Shown: piece by piece, positions 2,036-13,450 of the stretch
How positions within the stretch are numbered: the first letter of the stretch is position 1
Layout of the letters: every line of letters starts with the position of its first letter
Source of the DNA: Escherichia phage vB_KppS-Ant
DNA length: 16,548 nt
Strand: one strand, 5' to 3'
Sequence record: LR881103
Made by a program: the position numbers and the translations under genes
Notes under the pieces: generated by a model
What the model saw: only the letters and a program-made list of their open reading frames with translations
Database searches by the model: none
Told to the model about the DNA's origin: nothing

Positions 2036-4333
2036 ATGGCAGGTAAATCATTAGGCACTCTCACCATTGACCTGATCGCCAGAACCGGCGGTTTTGTCCA
2101 GGGTATGGATAAAGCCGAACGTTCATCACAAAAATGGCGGGATAACGTTAAAAAAGATGCCGCAGCCGTGGGTTCAGCCCTTGCTGCTGTTGGCACAGCC
2201 GCAGCAGCGGCGGCTATCGGTGTTAGTGCCGCTGGTATTGCACTGGTAAAAAATACCTCAGAGCAGATCACTGAAACTGATCGCTGGGCTAAATCGCTAA
2301 AAATGTCTACTCAGGATTTGCTTTCATGGCAGTTTGCTGCTGAGAAAGCAGGGTTGACCGGGGATAATATTGCTGACATCTTCAAGGATATTAACGATAA
2401 AGTCGGCGATGCTGTCCTGAACAAGTCAGGTGAGGCTGCTCAGGCTCTGGATACTCTCGGGCTTTCAGCTGAGAAACTGGCCCAGCAATCCCCTGATAAG
2501 CAGTTACTGGCTATCAGCTCGGCATTGCAAAAAATCCCCTCTCAGGCCGGGAAAACTAATATCCTCGAAAGCCTGGGGAATGACCTGTCAAAAATGCTGC
2601 CGTTGTTCGACAACAATAACGAGAAGCTGAAGCAGTTTATCCAGCTGTCAAAAGATTTTGGTGTCGCTCCGCCCCAGGAGGATATTGATAACCTGGTTAA
2701 GGTTAATCAGTTTTTCCAGGATATTGAGAGCAGTGCACAGGGGTTAAAGATCGAGATTGCCAGTGGCCTGGCTAAAGTAGACCTCTCACCGATTCAGGAT
2801 GGACTTGATGATATCCGGGATGTGTTTACCGATCCTGCTGTTCTGTCAGGTCTGGCAAAGCTGGTCGGAGGGATGGCGGAACTTGTTGGCTGGATGGGTA
2901 AGCTAAGTTCTGAATCTGCTAATTTTCTCAGCCATATATTTGAAGTGCCTGACAGGTTTAAGGCGGGTGGCTGGTACGAGTTTGAAAAAAATCAGAGATT
3001 AGGAGCAATAGCAGATACGCTTCAATCAGATTTAGGGGGAATAACTAAACCATCTTCAAACTCTGAGTTGCCAATAAATAATAACCTGCTCCCCGGGCAG
3101 AGCAATCAGAAACAAACTCAAAAGCCTGATGCTGAGGCAAAAAAACTTGAAAGTGCCTATAAAGCCGTAGAACAGTCATATTTAAAGCAAATTGCGCTGG
3201 TGGATCAGCTAACCGGGAAAACCAAAGACGCCACTGAAGTAGAAAAACTACATTTCGATTTAGTATCTGGTCGTCTGGTTGGGATAAATAAAGAACAGCA
3301 AATCAGGCTTGAGGGCTTGGCCTCAGAAGTTGATAAATATAACGCGTTGTCAAAATTTCGAGATTTGCAGGATGAGTTATTAACTCCAGAAGAAAAATTA
3401 CTTAAAACGACGAGAGAACGTTTTGAAATATTAAAAGATATTCAGGGAATGAAGGGGATCAGCCCTGATGAATATAAAAAAGCAGCAGAAGCCATATCGA
3501 AAGATTCATTTACAGATATGCCTAAATTTAGTGGTCTTGATCCGATGTTTGGCGGTCAATCTGGAGAGTTAAGAAAAGTTGATGACGCACAGAAAGAACA
3601 GGAAAAATGGTATCAGAATCAGCTCGATTTGCTGGAACAGAACCGTCAGGCACGTTCTGACCTTAATGATGAGTGGGATGCCAGAGAGCTTGAACTGAAG
3701 AAAAAACACCAGGATGAAATGAATAAGCTCGATGAAGCCCGTAATCAGCTGATGTTGAGCAGTGTTGTCGATGGGCTTGGTTCTATGGTGGATTTGACCC
3801 GTACAGCTTTTGGTGAGCAATCAGGAGTATACAAAGCCGCGTTTGCAGTTCAGAAAGCCGCGGCTATTGCTCAGTCTGTTATCGCTATCCAGCAGGGGAT
3901 CGCGATGGCGGCTGCAAACCCTTTCCCGTACAACCTTGCAGCGATGGCCAGCGTAGCCGCTTCTACAGCCGGTATTGTGTCGAACATTGCGGCCGTGGGT
4001 ATGGCTCACGATGGTATTGATGCTGTTCCAGAAACCGGAACATGGCTTCTCCAGAAGGGCGAACGCGTAGTCACGGCGAATACCAGCGCGAAACTGGATG
4101 CGACCCTTAACCGTGTCGCCCAGCAATCCACTTCTGGTAATCAGATTTCCCAGGAATTTAATTTTAACGTTAATGGCGATCCTTCTGATGCTCAGATAGC
4201 CATGATGAAGAAAGCGGCCGCTGACGGTGCCAAGATGGGGTATCAAAAGGCGGTCAATTCAGTAATTACTGGTCAGGGTGATTTGCACAAGGCTCTGATG
4301 ACGAAAACTAATTCAGGCAGAAAAATAGGGTGA
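2036..4333 (+). CDS. Tail tape-measure-like protein (lambda gpH family architecture)
   Basis: 765 aa; N-terminal GTLTIDLIARTGGFVQGM segment followed by an Ala-rich hydrophobic stretch; long central charged Lys/Glu/Gln-rich helical region; C-terminal hydrophobic Ala/Gly-rich block then GIDAVPETGTWLLQKGERVVTANTS, which resembles the conserved C-terminal motif of lambda-family tape-measure proteins; strong RBS (AAGGAG) upstream. Confidence 0.65.
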   Translation: MAGKSLGTLTIDLIARTGGFVQGMDKAERSSQKWRDNVKKDAAAVGSALAAVGTAAAAAAIGVSAAGIALVKNTSEQITETDRWAKSLKMSTQDLLSWQFAAEKAGLTGDNIADIFKDINDKVGDAVLNKSGEAAQALDTLGLSAEKLAQQSPDKQLLAISSALQKIPSQAGKTNILESLGNDLSKMLPLFDNNNEKLKQFIQLSKDFGVAPPQEDIDNLVKVNQFFQDIESSAQGLKIEIASGLAKVDLSPIQDGLDDIRDVFTDPAVLSGLAKLVGGMAELVGWMGKLSSESANFLSHIFEVPDRFKAGGWYEFEKNQRLGAIADTLQSDLGGITKPSSNSELPINNNLLPGQSNQKQTQKPDAEAKKLESAYKAVEQSYLKQIALVDQLTGKTKDATEVEKLHFDLVSGRLVGINKEQQIRLEGLASEVDKYNALSKFRDLQDELLTPEEKLLKTTRERFEILKDIQGMKGISPDEYKKAAEAISKDSFTDMPKFSGLDPMFGGQSGELRKVDDAQKEQEKWYQNQLDLLEQNRQARSDLNDEWDARELELKKKHQDEMNKLDEARNQLMLSSVVDGLGSMVDLTRTAFGEQSGVYKAAFAVQKAAAIAQSVIAIQQGIAMAAANPFPYNLAAMASVAASTAGIVSNIAAVGMAHDGIDAVPETGTWLLQKGERVVTANTSAKLDATLNRVAQQSTSGNQISQEFNFNVNGDPSDAQIAMMKKAAADGAKMGYQKAVNSVITGQGDLHKALMTKTNSGRKIG

Positions 4334-4548
4334 TGAAGATGACAGAACTTGAAAGTTTATTTTACGAGATGATGCCGGGTCATATTGCCCACGCGATGAA
4401 AATTGAAGGGGCAAAAATTCTGGCAGAAAGTACGCAGAAAGAGGCCGAACGTCAGTCAACGTTAACCGGCCTGTCTTCTGAGCTTATCATTCAAACTGCG
4501 ATTCAGGCGATCTCTATGCAGATGAAAAACTGGCAAGTAGTCCACTGA
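4330..4548 (+). CDS. Hypothetical small protein (72 aa), start overlaps the tape-measure stop
   Basis: ORF with GTG/ATG starts overlapping the upstream TGA; no recognisable motif. Confidence 0.4.
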   Translation: MMKMTELESLFYEMMPGHIAHAMKIEGAKILAESTQKEAERQSTLTGLSSELIIQTAIQAISMQMKNWQVVH

Positions 4549-4597
4549 CAAGGTTATGGCCCTCAATCGGGGGCCACACTACCAACTGAGGTGCTGC

Positions 4598-4786
4598 ATG
4601 TTAAAAAGAGAAGCTTTAGAGTCTGCCATTATCAGTGCAGCAAAATTGCAGGGGCATGATCTTAACGGGCGAGATCGTCTTATGGTGCGTAATCGCGTTG
4701 CCACTTGCTTGGCTGCGAAAGAACGCCACCGGCAAAGGATGGATGCCGAACCGTATCAATGGAGAAAGCCGGAAAGGCCAAGGTGA
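4598..4786 (+). CDS. Hypothetical small basic protein (about 62 aa; internal ATG of ORF 4556..4786)
   Basis: GAGG 6 nt upstream of ATG at 4598 (the ATG at 4556 has only a 2-nt spacer after AAGG); followed by an intrinsic terminator. Confidence 0.3.
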   Translation: MLKREALESAIISAAKLQGHDLNGRDRLMVRNRVATCLAAKERHRQRMDAEPYQWRKPERPR

Positions 4787-4837: not shown

Positions 4838-4849
4838 TGCGAGCCAACG

Positions 4850-4871
4850 TGTATAAACATATGTATAAACA
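4850..4871. repeat. Tandem pair of TGTATAAACA decamers (left copy of a 22-bp composite repeat)
   Basis: tgtataaaca-ta-tgtataaaca at 4850..4871, repeated 21/22 at 5083..5104. Confidence 0.7.
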
Positions 4872-5082: not shown

Positions 5083-5104
5083 TGTATAAACATTTGTATA
5101 AACA
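5083..5104. repeat. Tandem pair of TGTATAAACA decamers (right copy), just upstream of the integrase start
   Basis: tgtataaaca-tt-tgtataaaca at 5083..5104; candidate integrase arm-type sites. Confidence 0.7.
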
Positions 5105-5122
5105 CTTTGGGCTGGGTGGTCT

Positions 5123-6343
5123 ATGGCTGGCGAACTTAACAAACTGAGCGACAGGAAGTTAAAGGGATTACATGGTATCCCGGCCAGTAAGATTGAGTTC
5201 TATGCTGATGGTGCCGGGCTGAGCGCCAAGGTAACTAAAGCTGGTGGTATTAGCTGGGTGTTTACTTACCGACTCGACGGGCAGAAGCTGCATCGTCTTA
5301 CTCTGGGACGATACCCGGATATGAGCCTCAAAGAGGCCCGTTCTTCGCGTGATAAATGCCGCCAATGGCTGGCCTCAGGTAAAGATCCAAAGCACCAGTT
5401 GGCGCTGACCACTCAGGAAACGCTTAAACCGGTCACTGTTAAGGAAGCTATAGAATACTGGATACGCGAATATGCAGAAGAGAACCGCGCGAATGTTGAA
5501 CGGCACAAAGCGGAGCTGCGAAAACACATTTATCCTTATATAGGGAAAATGGCGCTCGCTGACTGTGAAACACGATACTGGCTTGACTGCTTTGACAGGA
5601 TGAAAAAGAAAACTCCAGTCGCCGCAGGTTATGTGTTCCAGATGTGCAAACAAGCCCTGAAATTCTGCCGGGTTCGTCGCTATGCTGTGAGTACCGCGCT
5701 TGAAGATTTAACAATTCCAGATGTCGGTAAAAAACAGGCAAAAAAAGACCGGGTATTAAACGATAAAGAGGCTGGCGATTTATGGGCTGCCATTTCCTCT
5801 GGCACTTGCTTCATGCCTTACTACACCAGGCTACTGACAATCTTAATGGTGTTTGGGTGCCGAACGCAGGAGGCCAGGCTATCAGAGTGGAGTGAATGGG
5901 ATATGGATGCCTGGGTCTGGACAGTTCCCAAAGAGCACAGCAAGGGCGGCGAGAAGATTGTAAGACCTGTGCCGGATGCCATGCGCAAATTCATTGAAAT
6001 ACTGCATGATGAAACGAAACGATCCGGCCTTTTGCTTGGGTCGGTTAAAGGCAGTGAAGCGGTAAGTCAGTGGGGCCGCGGTGTTTATAAAAAGCTGGGG
6101 CATTCTGAACCATGGACACTGCACGATCTAAGACGAACTTTAGCAACGCATATGAATAATATGGGTATAGCACCACACGTTGTCGAACAGTTGTTGGGGC
6201 ACTCAATGCCGGGAGTTATGGCGATTTATAACCGTAGTCTGTACTTGCCTGAGAAACTGGATGCGTTGAATAAATGGTATGACAGACTTGATATTTTATC
6301 AGGTGGATTCACTAACATTGTTTTGTTGAATAGGGCTGAATAA
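5123..6343 (+). CDS. int: Tyrosine site-specific integrase, P4-type (N-terminal arm-binding domain plus C-terminal catalytic domain)
   Basis: 406 aa; N-terminal L.D.K...GL.....G..W.F.YR..G.....LG.YP..SL.EAR...D pattern of P4-like integrases; C-terminal HDLRRT ... LLGH ... Y catalytic signature. Confidence 0.9.
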   Translation: MAGELNKLSDRKLKGLHGIPASKIEFYADGAGLSAKVTKAGGISWVFTYRLDGQKLHRLTLGRYPDMSLKEARSSRDKCRQWLASGKDPKHQLALTTQETLKPVTVKEAIEYWIREYAEENRANVERHKAELRKHIYPYIGKMALADCETRYWLDCFDRMKKKTPVAAGYVFQMCKQALKFCRVRRYAVSTALEDLTIPDVGKKQAKKDRVLNDKEAGDLWAAISSGTCFMPYYTRLLTILMVFGCRTQEARLSEWSEWDMDAWVWTVPKEHSKGGEKIVRPVPDAMRKFIEILHDETKRSGLLLGSVKGSEAVSQWGRGVYKKLGHSEPWTLHDLRRTLATHMNNMGIAPHVVEQLLGHSMPGVMAIYNRSLYLPEKLDALNKWYDRLDILSGGFTNIVLLNRAE

Positions 6344-7129: not shown

Positions 7130-7229
7130 CATTCAACAGCATTCAACAGCATTCAACAGCATTCAACGACACGTAACGACACGTAATGACACGTAACGGC
7201 ACCCGACAGCACCTAACAATACCTAGCTC
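7130..7229. repeat. Array of ten contiguous 10-bp units (CATTCAACAG x3, then progressively diverged copies)
   Basis: cattcaacag at 7130, 7140, 7150; cattcaacga, cacgtaacga, cacgtaatga, cacgtaacgg, cacccgacag, cacctaacaa, tacctagctc follow with strict 10-bp period. Confidence 0.8.
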
Positions 7230-7270: not shown

Positions 7271-7337
7271 CATCTTTGTTCATGGTTATTCATCACTGTT
7301 CATCAGCGTTCATCATTGTTCATCTTTGTTATGAACA
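7271..7337. repeat. Second 10-bp-periodic array: TGTTCATC-type units (about 5 direct copies plus 1 inverted copy)
   Basis: catctttgtt catggttatt catcactgtt catcagcgtt catcattgtt catctttgtt then atgaaca; the unit is one mismatch from the TGTTCACC octamer clustered at 11720..11950. Confidence 0.75.
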
Positions 7338-7583: not shown

Positions 7584-7868
7584 ATGCAAAATATAACCTT
7601 TACCCCGCCAAATCCTGAACAACGCCGCACCCTTTTAGAAGAGTACGGCTTTAAGTTTGATCGCCGAATCCGTGAAGATGAATGCAGCGAGATCACCAGT
7701 CTTTCCCGTTCCAGCCGCTGGAAGATGGAACAGCAGGGGCGCTTCCCTCCGCGCTGTCACTTTGGCCGCAATAGCTGTGCTTGGCTTCTTTCGGATGTGC
7801 TCTGGTGGGTTCGTAATCCGCCAGCAGTAGAGAACGTCAATAACCCATACAGCCGTAAATCTGCTTAA
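7584..7868 (+). CDS. alpA: AlpA-family phage transcriptional regulator (excisionase-like HTH)
   Basis: 94 aa; ...SEITSLSRSSRWKMEQQGRFPPRCHFGRNSCAWLLSDVLWWVRN matches the AlpA-family HTH pattern; GGAGG RBS; position downstream of int as in P4-like and PICI elements. Confidence 0.7.
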   Translation: MQNITFTPPNPEQRRTLLEEYGFKFDRRIREDECSEITSLSRSSRWKMEQQGRFPPRCHFGRNSCAWLLSDVLWWVRNPPAVENVNNPYSRKSA

Positions 7869-7888: not shown

Positions 7889-8581
7889 ATGAAAAAGATT
7901 AATGCCCTCCACGGGCAGGGATTCGCTCACCCTGTAGCCAGCCAGCACGATATTTCAGCGAACCGTAAACAGGTTATTGCCGGTGACTGGTCGCCCATTA
8001 ATCGCGGTGAATTTACGCTTGCCGATCTGGGGTTGCGCCACAACGGTAACGGGCTGGTGTGGCTGCGTTCCGGCGTGTCCGTGCATGAGGCAGACCATGA
8101 TGCAGGGATAAGCGGCAAGGACAAGACCAAAGGAAGGGTTAACGGCCTTCCTTTTGAATTTGTCGGCCAGTGGCAGGAATACCCGACTAAACGCAGCTTT
8201 GCCGTTTCAGTATCTACGGAACTACGGCGCCAGTATTACCCGGACGATGCCGCATTCAGTAAGGCAATGCGTGAGGCTGGTTATGTTCCGGTGCGCACTC
8301 GCAAACTGACCGGAAAGGATGCTCGTTTTTGGCTGTACCGTGTAACGGGCAATGATAAGGGGGTTGTCGCAGCAGAATCCGCGCCACACAAGGCTTGCGC
8401 GCCAGTTGTCCAGACCATATCTAAGCCTCATCCGTGGTTTAAGCGTGTGGCACTCGATGGTAAATGGCAGTACGTCTACGCAGATCACATCCGCTTTCTG
8501 ACTAAAAAGCGTCATCGCGTCGATGGTGTTCGGGTTCAGGGGTATACCGCTGGCGGGCTGAAAGTGGAGGCTATTGTATGA
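7889..8581 (+). CDS. Hypothetical protein (230 aa) between alpA and the replication module
   Basis: Protein-like composition; stop overlaps next potential start (ATGA); function not recognisable from sequence. Confidence 0.55.
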   Translation: MKKINALHGQGFAHPVASQHDISANRKQVIAGDWSPINRGEFTLADLGLRHNGNGLVWLRSGVSVHEADHDAGISGKDKTKGRVNGLPFEFVGQWQEYPTKRSFAVSVSTELRRQYYPDDAAFSKAMREAGYVPVRTRKLTGKDARFWLYRVTGNDKGVVAAESAPHKACAPVVQTISKPHPWFKRVALDGKWQYVYADHIRFLTKKRHRVDGVRVQGYTAGGLKVEAIV

Positions 8582-8593
8582 CAGGCAAAACAA

Positions 8594-8615
8594 AGGCGGC
8601 CATGCCGGGCCGCCT
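8594..8615. other. GC-rich hairpin (8-bp stem, 6-nt loop) right after the 7889..8581 stop; terminator-like for minus-strand readthrough
   Basis: AGGCGGCC-atgccg-GGCCGCCT; the U-tract lies on the minus-strand side (complement of aaaacaaa at 8586..8593). Confidence 0.35.
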
Positions 8616-8923
8616 GAGTCTCAACGCTTTACTGAAACATCGCCAGATTACCAGGCTTGCCGCTGGTGGTCAAACCTTGAGCCAACGAAATCCGTACGCA
8701 CAAATTAACCGCGTACGTTTAACGTACGGACATCGCAATCCATTGAAGGAACTTGATTATAACGAATCGTTAGAATCGGCTGGCAACAAACACGAACAGT
8801 ATTCGGGTTCGCCTGAACATCAACACTGCTTAGGTTCAGAGGTTCCGACGAATAACGTAGAGAGCTGCGAAGATAACCAACCCTCTTTAAGAGGTGAGCC
8901 TCTGCACAACGCATTAAGAGTTG

Positions 8924-8950
8924 CGCAAAACAACCCCTCTTTAAGAGGGG
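8924..8950 (-). terminator. Rho-independent terminator for the minus-strand RHH gene
   Basis: Minus-strand reading: CCCCTCTT-a-AAGAGGGG followed by ttgtttt, about 35 nt downstream of the 8982 stop; a second similar palindrome CCTCTTTAAGAGG lies at 8881..8894. Confidence 0.55.
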
Positions 8951-8981
8951 CAGTTCACAGCATTACGGAGAGTAACCCTGT

Positions 8982-9185
8982 TCAGCTTTCAGGTTCCGAT
9001 CTGGCTTTCTTGCGCTGCTCAGATTTGAGTTTGCGCCCGCAGGCATCCAGAACCCACGCAGAGAAATTAGCACCGGCGTTATCTGCTTTCTCTCGCTCTA
9101 CGCTGGCGTCAATCTCTTCAATAAGTTCGTGCGGAAATCGTATCTTTTTCTGCGCTGATTTAGCGTTTACTGCCTTAGTAGCCAT
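8982..9185 (-). CDS. Small ribbon-helix-helix-like DNA-binding protein (67 aa), candidate repressor
   Basis: KIRFPHELIEEIDASV...NFSAWVLDACGRKL fits a beta-strand / helix / helix RHH (Arc/CopG-like) layout; strong RBS AGGAGG 4 nt before ATG; own terminator; divergent from the replication operon promoter. Confidence 0.55.
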   Translation of the reverse strand: MATKAVNAKSAQKKIRFPHELIEEIDASVEREKADNAGANFSAWVLDACGRKLKSEQRKKARSEPES

Positions 9186-9198
9186 TTACCCTCCTGCG

Positions 9199-9271
9199 TA
9201 TAGTGAGGGTACACCATATCAGAAAAATAGCTTGACGTGTACCCCCACCGAAAATATAGTGGGGGTGCACC
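9199..9271 (+). promoter_or_regulatory. Near-consensus sigma70 promoter (TTGACG-17-TATAGT) overlapped by three operator-like 12-mers GTG(A/G)GGGT(A/G)CAC
   Basis: -35 TTGACG 9232..9237, 17-nt spacer, -10 TATAGT 9255..9260; 12-mers at 9203..9214 (+), 9237..9248 (inverted) and 9259..9270 (+); 17-bp direct repeat tatagtgagggtacacc / tatagtgggggtgcacc. Confidence 0.55.
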
Positions 9272-9363
9272 TTGAGGTTGAAGATACTCAAGATACAGCG
9301 AAGCCCGGCAGTGTTACCAGCACTAACCGGGCCTCTGACCACAACGTAACTGAGGCTTACATC

Positions 9364-9552
9364 ATGGCTTGTATACAGCATACCCAAACTCGCCCCAAAT
9401 ATCAGTATCGTTTTCTTGCGCTGAGCGCCATCGGGCGCAACGTCATTCACATCACCGCTACCACTGAGCGCGAAGCCCGTGAGCAATCACCGGATGGATG
9501 CGTGATGGTATTCGCTGGTCGTCTGCCAGTTCGGGAGGGGCACCATGCGTGA
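9364..9552 (+). CDS. Possible small leader protein (about 62 aa), 3' portion of the long ORF 8578..9552
   Basis: ATG at 9364 with GAGG 8 nt upstream, downstream of the 9232..9260 promoter; sequence MACIQHTQTRPKYQYRFLALSAIGRNVIHITATTEREAREQ... looks more protein-like than the upstream part of the frame. Confidence 0.3.
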   Translation: MACIQHTQTRPKYQYRFLALSAIGRNVIHITATTEREAREQSPDGCVMVFAGRLPVREGHHA

Positions 9553-9739: not shown

Positions 9740-9954
9740 GACAGGTTCCTTTTGAAGTCCTGATGCACGCTGAAAATGCCCTTTCTGAAAGCGAAGGAGC
9801 CTATGAGGTTCTCAGCATGTGGCTAGACAGTATTCCTGAAAGCGAGGAGTTCCACGGTGAAGCGTGCAAGGTAAGCGCAATCATGTCGCTGCTGCATAAA
9901 TCTATCGGCGAGCTGGTGAAAGCGCGGGAGGCTTACAGTGAAAAACGCGCCTAA
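9736..9954 (+). CDS. Hypothetical small acidic protein (72 aa)
   Basis: ATGA overlap with the upstream ORF; Glu-rich; overlaps the helicase start. Confidence 0.45.
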   Translation: MRQVPFEVLMHAENALSESEGAYEVLSMWLDSIPESEEFHGEACKVSAIMSLLHKSIGELVKAREAYSEKRA

Positions 9955-11689
9955 TGTGAAAACCCTCCCGCGCGACAAAATGGAGGAGGCCATCATCTTT
10001 GCTGGAACGGGAGCATGGAAAGCCGCTCAGGATTACCAGAAAGGGAAGGGCGAGCATGGAGACGATGTTCCGCCTGTGGTTCTGGATCACACCCAACTGG
10101 CGGAATTACCACACCTGCGCATTGTTGATAAAGGCCGTCGATTTGCCCGTGTCTGTCAGGCCGGGCTTATCGAGCAAAACCAAATCAGCATGATTGCAAA
10201 TAAGTTGTGTGAGGCTGGCGTTACCAATGCTGAGTTTATCAACGAACAAGGCGAGAAAGAGGACTGGACGCCATTGATGAAACGTCTGGAAGACGAGCCC
10301 CTTATGGTGACTACGAGGGGAAGTGCTACGCCAGCGCTTAACCAGATGGGAGCCAGCCAGCGCGGGGAAGTTCTGCTTGCTCATTACAATGGCAATCTGG
10401 CGATCCATGCTGATTCCGACACGGTTCATCATTACAACGGCGTGGTGTGGGTTCCGCTTTCGGATAAAGAGCTGCAGCGAGAAATGGCGCAGATTTTTAT
10501 TGATTCCGAAGTCGCCTATTCGCAGAACGCGATTAAATCCGCTGTCGATACAATGAAGCTGGGCCTCCCGGTAATGGGTAACACAGCCCGTAACCTGATT
10601 GGTTTCAGCAACGGGGTTTTTGATACCCGGTTAGGCCAATTTCGACCGCATGATAAAAAGGACTGGCTTATCGTTGCGAGCGAATTGCCATTCAGCGAAC
10701 CAGCAGAAGGTGAAACTCTGGCAACCCATGCGCCTAACTTCTGGAAATGGCTCCGCCGCTCTGTGGCGGATAATGACCGAAAAGCAGACCGCGTACTGTC
10801 TGCGCTGTTTATGGTGCTGGCGAACCGGTACGACTGGCAGCTGTTTCTTGAGGTAACGGGGCCGGGCGGAAGTGGTAAAAGTGTCATGGCTGAGATCTGC
10901 ACGATGCTGGCGGGCAAGGCCAATACGGTATCGGCGAGCATGGCGGCGCTGGAGAACCCAAGGGAAAGGGCGCTGGTAGTTGGCTATTCGCTGATTATCA
11001 TGCCGGATATGACCCGGTACGCTGGCGACGGCGCAGGGATTAAAGCTATCACTGGCGGGGATAAGGTGGCTATCGACCCAAAACACAAAGCGCCATATTC
11101 AACCCGTATCCCGGCGGTGGTGCTGGCCGTCAATAACAATGCTATGACGTTCAGTGACCGCAGCGGCGGTATTTCAAGGCGACGGGTGATTTTCAACTTC
11201 ACCGAAGTAGTGCCGGAAAACGAACGCGATCCGATGCTGGCCGAGAAGATTGAAGGAGAGCTTGCGGTAATCATCCGGCATCTGCTTGTGCGCTTTTCCA
11301 GCCAGAACGAAGCCAAACAGCTTTTGCATGAGCAGCAGAAATCAGAAGAAGCGCTGGCCATCAAACGTGAAGGGGATTCACTGGTGGACTTTTGCGGATA
11401 CCTGATGGCTTCGGTGGTTTGTGATGGAATGCTGATTGGTAATGCCGAGATCGTGCCATTCAGCCCGCGCCGTTATCTGTATCACGCTTATCTGGCTTAC
11501 ATGCGGGCCAATGGTCTTAGCAAGCCTGTATCGTTAATGCGGTTCGGTACGGATATGCCAGGCGCAATGGCTGAATATGGCAAGGAGTACCAGAAGCGCA
11601 AAACTAAAAATGGCATAAGATCGAACGTCACCCTGCATGATGATTCAGAAGACTGGATGCCAATGTGTACCGATACAACAAAAGAATAA
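9938..11689 (+). CDS. Replication protein: P4-alpha / D5-family SF3 helicase (phage/plasmid primase C-terminal type), probable origin-binding initiator
   Basis: 583 aa; Walker A GPGGSGKS about 300 aa in; D5_N-like region upstream (HYNGVVWVP); GTG start with GGGAGG RBS; iteron cluster immediately downstream. Confidence 0.8.
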   Translation: MKNAPNVKTLPRDKMEEAIIFAGTGAWKAAQDYQKGKGEHGDDVPPVVLDHTQLAELPHLRIVDKGRRFARVCQAGLIEQNQISMIANKLCEAGVTNAEFINEQGEKEDWTPLMKRLEDEPLMVTTRGSATPALNQMGASQRGEVLLAHYNGNLAIHADSDTVHHYNGVVWVPLSDKELQREMAQIFIDSEVAYSQNAIKSAVDTMKLGLPVMGNTARNLIGFSNGVFDTRLGQFRPHDKKDWLIVASELPFSEPAEGETLATHAPNFWKWLRRSVADNDRKADRVLSALFMVLANRYDWQLFLEVTGPGGSGKSVMAEICTMLAGKANTVSASMAALENPRERALVVGYSLIIMPDMTRYAGDGAGIKAITGGDKVAIDPKHKAPYSTRIPAVVLAVNNNAMTFSDRSGGISRRRVIFNFTEVVPENERDPMLAEKIEGELAVIIRHLLVRFSSQNEAKQLLHEQQKSEEALAIKREGDSLVDFCGYLMASVVCDGMLIGNAEIVPFSPRRYLYHAYLAYMRANGLSKPVSLMRFGTDMPGAMAEYGKEYQKRKTKNGIRSNVTLHDDSEDWMPMCTDTTKE

Positions 11690-11719
11690 AGGCGGGGAAA
11701 ATTAAAAGTAATGGGATAA

Positions 11720-11950
11720 GTGTTCACCACTGTTCACCATGTATAAAAATCATTAAATAACAATATGTTAATGGGTGAACACTTTTTTATGAAGTGTTCA
11801 CCAAGTATTCACCTGTTCACCCTGTTTTATCTTTTCCTCAGTTTGAGGTGAAGGGTTGGGTGAACACTAGTGAACACCTGAAAGAATAGTATTCACCCTG
11901 TAACTATATGAATTTAATTAATAAATTATCAAAGGTGAACAGGTGAACAC
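11720..11950. promoter_or_regulatory. Origin-like iteron cluster: at least 10 copies of TGTTCACC / GGTGAACA (and the TATTCACC variant) in both orientations in AT-rich DNA
   Basis: Copies at about 11721, 11731, 11774 (inv), 11794, 11805 (variant), 11814, 11859 (inv), 11869 (inv), 11889 (variant), 11934 (inv), 11942 (inv). Confidence 0.65.
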
Positions 11951-12095
11951 TTAAACGTATATTTTTTAATTTTATTGAGCAACGCAGGATCACTTCCAGC
12001 CTGGAATACCTGGGATCAATCATGGAACACGCACCGTGGAATATTAAAAGCTAATATTTTTGTAAATTATTTGTATTCATGTTTACTCATTCTTA

Positions 12096-12123
12096 CCCCC
12101 GTCTTTTGCGGGGGTTTTCTTTA
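12096..12123 (+). terminator. Rho-independent terminator between the replication and head modules
   Basis: CCCCCG-tcttttg-CGGGGG (6-bp GC stem) followed by ttttcttt. Confidence 0.6.
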
Positions 12124-12289
12124 TATTTTTCATGTATATCTTGAAGAGTGGCACTCAGACGTGAGCCGCCACTGGCCGTTAAGTCAAGCTGTAGCGAGTA
12201 CAGCCTGCGAGAGGCAGAAAAAGATTTAACGGCCTCCCCTCCAAGCGCTGGTTTCACGTCTCTACATTAATTGATACGGAAACCACTCC

Positions 12290-13450
12290 ATGAAGAAACT
12301 ACTCGAATTACGCCAGCAGAAAGCCGCACTCAAAACACAGATGCGTTCCATGCTGGACAAAGCCGACACCGAAAAGCGCAGCCTGAACGAAGAAGAGGGC
12401 AAAAAGTTCGACGAACTCCGCGCACAGGCTGATGCGCTTGAAGTTGAAATCAACCGCCTTGAAGCCGTCGCCGAAGATCAGCGCAATCTGCCTGGTACTT
12501 CCGTTGAAGGTGATCCAGTAAGCAACGACGAGCTGCGCCACTACATCATGACCGGTGATACCCGTTCTCTCTCCACGCTGGTGCAGGCTGACGGCGGTTA
12601 TACCGTTATCCCTGAGCTGGACAAAGAGATTATGCGCCAGTTGCAGGATGATAGCGTGATGCGCTCCATCGCAACGGTGAAGACCACCAAAACCAACGAA
12701 TACCAGAAGCTGGTATCTGTGGGCGGCACTACCGTTAATCGTGGTACCGAAGGTGAGGCACGTACCGAAACCAGTACGCCGAAGATGGAGCGCGTTGATA
12801 TCAAACTCAACCCGATCTACGCCTACCCGAAAACCACTCAGGAGATTCTCGACTTCTCCGAGGTGGATATTTTGGGCTGGCTGTCTTCTGAAATTGCCGA
12901 CACCTTCACCGCGACCGAAGAAAGCGACTTTGTGAACGGCGACGGTGATAAAAAATCCAAAGGCTTCCTGTCTTACCCTCGCGCGGCCACTGCCGACAAA
13001 ACCCGTCCGTTCGGTACGCTGGAGAAGATGGAAGCGGCTGACGTTTCCTCTGATGGCCTGATCGACCTGCTGTATAAGCTGAAAGCCAAATACCGCAAAA
13101 ACGCCGTATGGGTGATGAACTCCAACACCGCAGCCAAACTGCAAAAGCTGAAAAACGGCAACGGGGATTACATCTGGCGCGATCGTCTGGTTGCCGGTTC
13201 TCCCGATACCCTGCTGGGCCGTCCGGTTCAGTACCTTGAAACCATGCCTGATGCTGATGCCGGAGAAGCGTTCCTCGCGGTTGGCGACTTCAAGCGCGGT
13301 TACTTCATCGTGGATCACACTACTGGTGTGCGTACCCGCCCTGACAACATCACCGAGCCGGGCTTCTATAAGGTTCACACCGATAAATATCTGGGCGGCG
13401 GCGTGGTGGACTCCAACGCGATCAAGATTCTGGAGCTTGCTGGTTCCTGA
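12290..13450 (+). CDS. Major capsid protein, HK97 fold/family
   Basis: 386 aa; N-terminal coiled-coil delta-domain-like region (KKLLELRQQKAALKTQ...), then ADGGYTVIPELDKEI and the overall HK97-family pattern. Confidence 0.85.
   Translation: MKKLLELRQQKAALKTQMRSMLDKADTEKRSLNEEEGKKFDELRAQADALEVEINRLEAVAEDQRNLPGTSVEGDPVSNDELRHYIMTGDTRSLSTLVQADGGYTVIPELDKEIMRQLQDDSVMRSIATVKTTKTNEYQKLVSVGGTTVNRGTEGEARTETSTPKMERVDIKLNPIYAYPKTTQEILDFSEVDILGWLSSEIADTFTATEESDFVNGDGDKKSKGFLSYPRAATADKTRPFGTLEKMEAADVSSDGLIDLLYKLKAKYRKNAVWVMNSNTAAKLQKLKNGNGDYIWRDRLVAGSPDTLLGRPVQYLETMPDADAGEAFLAVGDFKRGYFIVDHTTGVRTRPDNITEPGFYKVHTDKYLGGGVVDSNAIKILELAGS

Follow-up and report, generated by a model that had tools for sequence, protein, structure and literature searches.

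What is the function of the dense cluster of octamers that directly follows the gene for a 583-residue SF3 helicase in the DNA of Escherichia phage vB_KppS-Ant (sequence record LR881103)? We addressed this question in a stretch of 16,548 bp from that record, referred to below as the window. A first reading, made from the sequence alone, had described at least ten octamers within about 230 bp, in both orientations, with TATTCACC variants among them and directly after the helicase stop codon, all of which agrees with a direct count. It had also equated the octamer with the type I iteron of satellite phage P4 and proposed that the cluster is the origin of the element. We assign a probability of about 0.87 to the interpretation that the octamer cluster serves a phage satellite, a capsid-forming phage-inducible chromosomal island (cf-PICI), as its replication origin.

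Counting both strands, TGTTCACC/GGTGAACA occurs eight times in exact form in the window, and all eight copies lie inside 11721-11949; no exact octamer is present outside the cluster in the remainder of the 16.5 kb. Together with four imperfect copies, the sites are as follows.

11721 (+), 11731 (+), 11774 (-), 11795 (+), 11814 (+), 11859 (-), 11934 (-), 11942 (-): exact TGTTCACC octamers, on either strand.
11806 (+) and 11890 (+), TATTCACC; 11869 (-), TGTTCACT: the three octamers with one mismatch.
11847-11854 (minus sense): GGTGAAGG, the one octamer with two mismatches.

Comparison with a shuffled expectation had been named beforehand as a test of the cluster. Dinucleotide-preserving shuffles of the window contain a mean of 0.40 exact copies, with a maximum of 2, compared with the 8 observed. 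When only the region 11700-11960 is shuffled, the mean falls to 0.004 for exact copies, and for copies with at most one mismatch it is 0.14 (maximum 3), compared with 11 seen. The helicase reading frame ends at 11689, so that the first octamer, at 11721, lies 32 nt past the stop codon, and the G+C content of 11701-12000 is 0.33, compared with approximately 0.5 for the flanking genes. Rfam and tRNA scans of the window gave zero matches, indicating that the region is not a known RNA gene. Neither a DnaA box (TTWTNCACA) nor an IHF consensus is found in 11600-12300; being without these sites and having an SF3 helicase as its presumptive initiator, the locus does not resemble a Rep_3 or DnaA-assisted plasmid-type iteron origin. 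Two open reading frames that overlap or adjoin the cluster, 11497-11730 (-) and 11975-12229 (+), were considered as genes and rejected: they have no family matches, and the similarity of relatives stops at about 11975.

The sites are not scattered but ordered around a common centre, and the following elements can be distinguished.

11698-11973: the whole predicted origin, an imperfect 276-bp dyad centred at 11835/11836 (11835.5); inverted repeats I1, I2 and I15 share this centre.
11721-11728 and 11731-11738 (+): iteron group 1, two direct TGTTCACC, with conservation of 0.998 and 0.885 among 75 distinct relatives.
11739-11773: AT-rich spacer 1, 35 nt, at least 80% A+T, between convergent iterons; a candidate DNA-unwinding element.
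11774-11821: iteron group 2, consisting of GGTGAACA at 11774-11781 (-), 13 nt, and then three direct sites at 11795-11802, 11806-11813 (TATTCACC) and 11814-11821.
11822-11846: central spacer with the dyad centre, not especially AT-rich.
11847-11897: iteron group 3, the mirror of group 2, consisting of GGTGAAGG at 11847-11854 (-), GGTGAACA at 11859-11866 (-), AGTGAACA at 11869-11876 (-) and TATTCACC at 11890-11897 (+).
11898-11933: AT-rich spacer 2, 36 nt, at least 80% A+T, the mirror of spacer 1; a second candidate unwinding element.
11934-11941 and 11942-11949 (-): iteron group 4, two abutting GGTGAACA, the mirror of group 1.
12095-12125 (+): hairpin with T-run resembling an intrinsic terminator, between the origin and the capsid gene (12290); a consensus match, for which the shuffled expectation is 1.0.

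Read along the helicase-sense strand, the order is two plus sites, the 35-nt AT-rich spacer, one minus site, 13 nt, three plus sites, the centre, three minus sites and one plus site, the 36-nt AT-rich spacer, and two minus sites. The 12 sites form six mirror pairs whose mid-points all fall at 11834-11836, which identifies the array as a dyad. The left half and the reverse complement of the right half are identical at 96 of 149 positions, and the ungapped dyad score is 65/141, compared with 40 ± 5 in shuffles. Both spacers, each bracketed by convergent iterons, rank with the most AT-rich 35-mers of the window. The hairpin stands after the origin; if it is used, transcripts of the helicase operon may cross the origin.

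This organization is conserved. A scan of IMG/VR with the helicase yielded 80 loci whose helicases are 75-99% identical, and in 79 of them the helicase stop is followed by 7-16 octamers (at most one mismatch), mostly within about 250 bp and in a few loci to about 440 bp. The orientation string common to the 79 loci is ++-+++-(-)+--. In an alignment of 75 distinct downstream regions, the base found in the window is kept in 93% of cases in iteron columns, compared with 65% in spacer columns, and similarity collapses past about 11975. The mirror layout is conserved also across the octamer classes described below, with about 4 mirrored pairs among about 10 sites versus 2.2 at random; four or more pairs occur in 0.5% of random sets.

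The alpha protein of satellite phage P4 reportedly binds type 1 repeats via its C-terminal domain. The P4 record (NC_001609) carries 16 'ori type 1 repeat' features, 6 in ori (9310-9413) and 10 in crr (4291-4590), the latter directly downstream of alpha. These features are TGTTCACC or one-mismatch variants of it, TATTCACC included, and the identity that the sequence-only reading gave to the octamer is therefore right. The two systems share the octamer, the TATTCACC variant and a homologous helicase with its origin-binding domain. Furthermore, the left half of the window's dyad is collinear with the P4 ori core (89/131 identity): on the alpha-sense strand, the core reads two plus sites, 35 nt of AT, one minus site, 14 nt and three plus sites, so that the AT spacer is equal in length and the gap between the minus site and the three plus sites is 14 nt rather than the 13 nt of the window. 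The crr unit aligns with the left half less well than the ori core does. As with crr in P4, the cluster lies directly 3' of the alpha-type gene. Thus the locus combines the position of crr with the architecture of ori, the latter present twice in inverted orientation.

P4 and the window's family differ in how many clusters they have. In P4-like loci, with alpha 84-99% identical to that of P4, two clusters are present in 58 of the 69 in which the alpha C-terminus was located, one an ori-type cluster of the order ++-+++, lying 1.7-2.4 kb upstream of alpha, the other a crr-type cluster that follows alpha at about 50 bp. In the window's family only the second of these positions is occupied; instead of a bipartite ori and crr, exactly one cluster is found in the window and in 77 of 81 family loci. 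The window helicase also lacks the N-terminal primase region of alpha, about 320 residues long, the alignment beginning at alpha residue 327, and the element, a cf-PICI rather than a P4-like satellite, is without sid, psu and delta but encodes a capsid, a portal, a protease and a terminase of its own.

One relative, L028, has a longer array. Its helicase stop is at 4620, and the 16 iterons that follow, in the order ++-+++-+--++-+++ and with sites up to +422, make up a complete origin plus an extra left-half module in direct repeat, which recalls the tandem 120-bp units of the P4 crr.

The protein expected to act on these sites is encoded immediately upstream.

9938-11689 (+): gene for the putative initiator helicase, 583 residues; D5_N, DUF5906, Pox_D5 (Pfam).
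11372-11662 (+): coding sequence of its C-terminal winged-helix origin-binding domain, residues ~479-575, matched by phmmer to PDB 1KA8 (E 2.3e-25).
11588-11635 (+): coding sequence of the 'wing' segment, residues ~551-566 (..YQKRKTKNGIRSNVTL..), in which the substitutions and 1-5-residue indels that separate the classes are found.

The helicase consists of D5_N, an SF3 ATPase with the Walker A motif GPGGSGKS and a C-terminal DNA-binding domain of the Pox_D5/P4-alpha type. By BLASTP, residues 134-581 are 51% identical to residues 327-775 of P4 alpha (E 1e-164), Walker A included, and the C-terminal ~100 residues match 1KA8, which bears out the earlier assignment to the P4-alpha type. There is a weak match to PPV_E1_C (Pfam), and the ATPase core is matched by PDB 7OLA (E 4e-9), the PriRep protein of the Staphylococcus aureus pathogenicity island (SaPI) SaPI5. 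Residues 1-133 (9938-10336) have no Pfam or NCBIfam match and do not align to the primase region of P4 alpha; they match PHROG 2850 (unknown function) and part of PHROG 864, and nothing else. The sole NCBIfam match of the protein is a sub-threshold one to TIGR01613 'primase_Cterm' (99.5 bits, cutoff 108.7). As residues 1-133 match no primase model, the helicase part alone accounts for the RefSeq name 'DNA primase family protein'. The 1KA8 domain is a winged helix, and in winged helices the stretch that corresponds to the wing segment is the β2-β3 wing, which comes after the recognition helix (PMC2777425). An AlphaFold2 model of the C-terminal domain, built on a 12-sequence alignment, has a mean pLDDT of 45.6, too poor for a fold search or residue mapping; it places two strands at the wing stretch, which serves as a secondary-structure hint only.

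If the C-terminal domain reads the octamer, the two should change together, and natural variants allow this to be examined. L019 is the sole exception among the 80 loci. Its helicase is 89% identical to that of the window but carries the wing KRKQCTRGPDKGRTISNVLL in place of KRKTKNGIRSNVTL, and its downstream region (L019:5555-5790) has a window-like architecture built from TGTCTACC. DNA identity between the two is 80-92% through the helicase body and 50-60% from about 11533 on, that is, over the part of the gene that encodes the wing and over the origin. Further classes came from a second scan, for which the L019 C-terminus was the seed; the total rose to 109 distinct loci in at least seven classes, with wings and octamers paired as follows.

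Wing K(R/K)KTKxG(I/L)RSNV: octamer TGTTCACC; this class includes P4, with the wing KRHTKQGIQTNL.
Wing KR(K/R)QCT(R/K)GPDKGRTISN, or KRKQCTRGPDKGRTISN: octamer TGTCTACC.
A variant of the wing KR(K/R)QCT(R/K)GPDKGRTISN: octamer TATCTACC.
Wing IRKKSTKGNMRSN: octamer TCTCCACC.
Wing KKERATRGPSKGNYQSN: octamer TGTCCACC, a rarer class.
Wing KKAESKKKATRGRIQSN: octamer TGTCCGCC, a rarer class.
Wing LRKKSTKGNIRSN: octamer TATCCACC, a rarer class.
Loci L019, L084-L098, L099 and L103-L127: origin variants other than TGTTCACC, each paired with a distinct helicase wing.

In none of the 109 loci does the dominant octamer depart from the one that the wing motif predicts, and the architecture of the origin is unchanged throughout. 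The differences that define the classes, including the 1-5-residue indels, fall between the conserved EY..Y and SN..L. From these comparisons we infer that the wing segment (residues ~551-566) determines iteron specificity; such co-variation is what should arise when the octamer is read by the C-terminal domain and both evolve, or are exchanged, as one cassette. The proposal of the sequence-only reading that the cluster is the element's origin thus draws strong comparative support from the conservation of the cluster in 79 of 80 loci, from the octamer columns and from the co-variation with the wing.

A mechanism can be proposed on this basis. After induction by a helper phage, the early operon, from alpA to the helicase gene, would express the helicase, and the 583-residue SF3 protein would act as its own initiator, docking on TGTTCACC through its C-terminal winged helix. 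One hexamer would assemble on each half-origin, its six subunits matched to six sites. Both AT-rich spacers would then melt, and two SF3 hexamers would move apart, in the 3'-5' direction as for alpha, resulting in bidirectional replication. Because an alpha-type primase domain is absent, primers must come from the host or another factor, and host primase DnaG would be one candidate. A tentative extension, which we consider possible but doubtful, is that the family fused the ori and crr of P4 into one palindromic platform of 2 x 6 sites with the hexamers head-to-head, and that the indel-prone wing and the origin were swapped as a cassette, producing at least seven orthogonal replicon classes. 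Since P4 has the octamer of the TGTTCACC class (class A), each of the two kinds of initiator, P4 alpha and the class-A PICI helicases, may activate the origin of the other or compete for it in a shared cell.

Several points weigh against the cluster being an origin of this kind. Binding, melting and initiation at this locus are all things that we infer from sequence. P4 needs both ori and crr, and by analogy one cluster would be insufficient if the P4 rule held strictly. The iterons are degenerate in some relatives, so six sites per half is not a strict rule, and the DNA at the dyad centre is not AT-rich. A primase domain was not found in the helicase, and primers would have to come from elsewhere. 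Finally, the placement of the specificity residues on a β-hairpin wing is a prediction from the 1KA8 alignment and from general knowledge of winged helices (PMC2777425).

The cluster occupies the position of the P4 crr, directly after an alpha-type gene, and in P4-like loci a crr some 50 bp past alpha is consistently retained in addition to a separate ori, raising the question whether it is a crr-like auxiliary region that binds the helicase while the true origin lies elsewhere in the element. We consider this very unlikely: a second cluster is missing in the window, nearly all family loci likewise have a single one, and the half-site order (two plus sites, AT, one minus, three plus) matches the P4 ori and not the crr unit. 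The only other array resembling the octamer, five copies of TGTTCATC at 7271-7330, tracks the int/alpA module rather than the helicase, as L019 carries it together with a different octamer. That array (TGTTCATC-like, 5-6 copies) lies upstream of alpA in the position equivalent to the P4 ori and was considered as a second alpha-binding cluster, but was rejected, being present in 6 related loci only.

The location between the early operon and the capsid gene, the terminator-like hairpin after the cluster and the weak promoter-like hexamers that overlap its right end would also suit transcriptional operators without origin function, through which the helicase operon would regulate itself or which would form a roadblock or an insulator between the early operon and the capsid/packaging operon. 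The promoter scan, however, gave 2 promoter-like matches versus 2.2 expected, which is chance level; a 12-site dyad with two AT-rich spacers, beside an SF3 helicase with a DNA-binding domain related to one of proven origin binding, has the architecture of an origin; and the cluster is always attached to the helicase gene, whereas the genes that follow it differ among relatives (SSB, hypothetical proteins, capsid). A purely operator function is accordingly a highly improbable explanation to us, and a secondary regulatory role may exist beside the origin role. Packaging (pac) and centromere-like sites, too, can have repeat arrays in AT-rich DNA, but that the cluster is a cos/pac site or a partition-centromere-like array appears extremely improbable, as TerS, TerL and HNH lie about 4-5 kb away at the opposite end of the late operon, partition genes were not found, and the repeat co-varies with the helicase wing and not with any terminase. 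We therefore retain the replication origin as the preferred interpretation.

The remaining genes of the window indicate to what kind of element this origin would belong.

5123-6343: tyrosine integrase.
7584-7868: AlpA-type regulator.
From 12290: head and packaging operon, comprising capsid, prohead protease, portal, head completion protein, connector and HNH (Pfam).
23-379 and 363-2024: TerS and TerL, at the start of the window and continuing the late operon by wrap-around.

An early region of the order int-alpA-pri/rep together with capsid, protease, portal, head-tail connectors, HNH, TerS and TerL is the gene set of a cf-PICI, and by this gene set the host element is classified as one. Chromosomal relatives in E. 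coli have an equal gene order and are located between yhdJ and fis, which is the 'fis' site of Gram-negative PICIs (PMC10111431). Just upstream of int, a doubled motif, TGTATAAACA(N)TGTATAAACAC, at ~4846-4870 and 5083-5109 flanks an AT-rich, attP-like stretch. A paired integrase arm-type motif surrounds attP in fis-site and helper-embedded PICIs (PMC10111431); the doubled TGTATAAACA motif fits this type, and the window therefore looks like an excised, circularly permuted island.

Heads without tails are what cf-PICIs are described to encode, and the SatelliteFinder cfPICI model lists tail genes among its 'forbidden components' (PMC10085698), but the window carries a homolog of one. The open reading frame 2036-4333 (+), 765 residues and directly after TerL, encodes a full-length tail tape-measure homolog (PHROG 2854, E 2e-176) with 63% identity to the tape-measure proteins of Klebsiella phage KpF5 (annotated 'tail length tape-measure protein H') and of E. 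coli siphophages. This late gene may have been captured, and its product may help to hijack tails or to inject DNA. The E. coli relatives have unrelated small genes at this position. In the open reading frame 8578-9552 (+), 324 residues, only the last ~50 residues have a match, to the Icd-like host cell-division inhibitor family NF033153 (E 1e-15); Icd-like genes are about 60 codons long in the E. coli relatives, and the real gene may thus be much shorter, or fused. Upstream of alpA, at 7130-7202 and 7271-7330, are three adjacent arrays with a 10-bp period: CATTCAACAG x3.8, AACGACACGT x3.8 and (T/C)GTTCATCA-like x6. The third terminates in a palindrome, TTGTTATGAACAA, and its last unit is one base off the helicase iteron. 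AlpA, or some other regulator, probably binds to these arrays.

Of 5,426 complete E. coli genomes, 691 contain sequence that resembles this origin, at up to 6 places per genome, suggesting that one chromosome can house several satellites whose helicase-ori modules are related. Three RefSeq records were examined, and the origin stretch is unannotated in all of them. One of the chromosomal loci (L164, E. coli O157:H7 Z1836, NZ_CP062778.1 1794782-1797548) encodes a 604-residue helicase followed by 10 iterons, a small hypothetical gene and then SSB; this PICI is inserted inside a prophage gene for the terminase large subunit and is therefore helper-embedded.

The analysis pins down a probable replicon for a widespread family of phage satellites, the helper-embedded PICIs of O157:H7 included, and ties PICI origins to the biochemically characterised alpha/iteron system of P4. 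Through this tie, work on PICIs can draw on existing P4 reagents and on the 1KA8 structure. The natural wing/octamer pairs amount to a ready-made experiment on how winged helices read DNA, and delivery vectors based on satellites might obtain orthogonal replicons from this panel.

Outside the satellites, SV40 large T antigen and papillomavirus E1 offer a functional likeness: an SF3 helicase with its own origin-binding domain acts on a palindromic array of short sites with AT-rich or easily melted flanks. These proteins load as two hexamers, as the window's helicase would in the mechanism proposed above, and the resemblance is functional only, as the fold of the DNA-binding domain and its position in the protein differ. 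ORF904 of the archaeal plasmid pRN1 shares with the window helicase the combination of SF3, D5_N and a C-terminal winged helix aligned to 1KA8, and an essential non-coding region lies downstream of its gene (PMC2777425). In pRN1, however, a prim/pol domain is fused to the helicase, and neither an array of iterons nor binding to specific sites is known there.

The SaPIs come closer. Their Reps are self-loading helicases that use a C-terminal winged helix to bind 6-12 iterons situated directly past the rep gene, and the SaPI ori has an AT-rich centre between oppositely oriented iterons, for which the loading of two hexamers has been proposed (PMC9371898). The window shares the placement of the iterons directly 3' of the initiator-helicase gene, the opposite iterons around AT-rich DNA, and the matched specificity of Rep and ori, which is here seen on comparative, not biochemical, evidence. 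It differs in that the helicase belongs to another lineage by sequence, the repeats are octamers instead of penta- or hexamers, the hosts are Gram-negative, and no primase has been identified in the element, whereas SaPIs have a separate or fused one.

The closest counterparts are the Gram-negative PICIs. Fillol-Salom et al. 2018 (PMC6092414) place the PICI ori immediately 3' of pri/rep, with iteron sets flanking AT-rich DNA, and describe plasmid replication supported by the rep-ori segment of EcCICFT073. The window and the pri-rep-ori of EcCICFT073 have in common the order int-alpA-...-pri/rep-ori-late genes, and the yhdJ-fis site is shared through the E. coli relatives. The octamers begin immediately 3' of the helicase gene in the window and likewise in 79 of 80 relatives, and opposite iterons around an AT-rich region are found twice, at 11739-11773 and 11898-11933. 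The founding preprint on cf-PICIs does not discuss the origin. In the PICI literature as searched, which did not extend to the iteron-sequence figure of PMC6092414, we found no description of the octamer and ori module as being those of P4, of the dyad of 12 sites, of two AT spacers in place of one, or of the wing/octamer classes. As judged from these comparisons, the locus can be placed with the self-loading SF3 helicase origins (PICI/SaPI/P4 type), and as it fits the PICI/SaPI kind fully it is not categorically new; the predicted wing/octamer specificity classes and the putative palindromic double ori module are its useful comparative additions.

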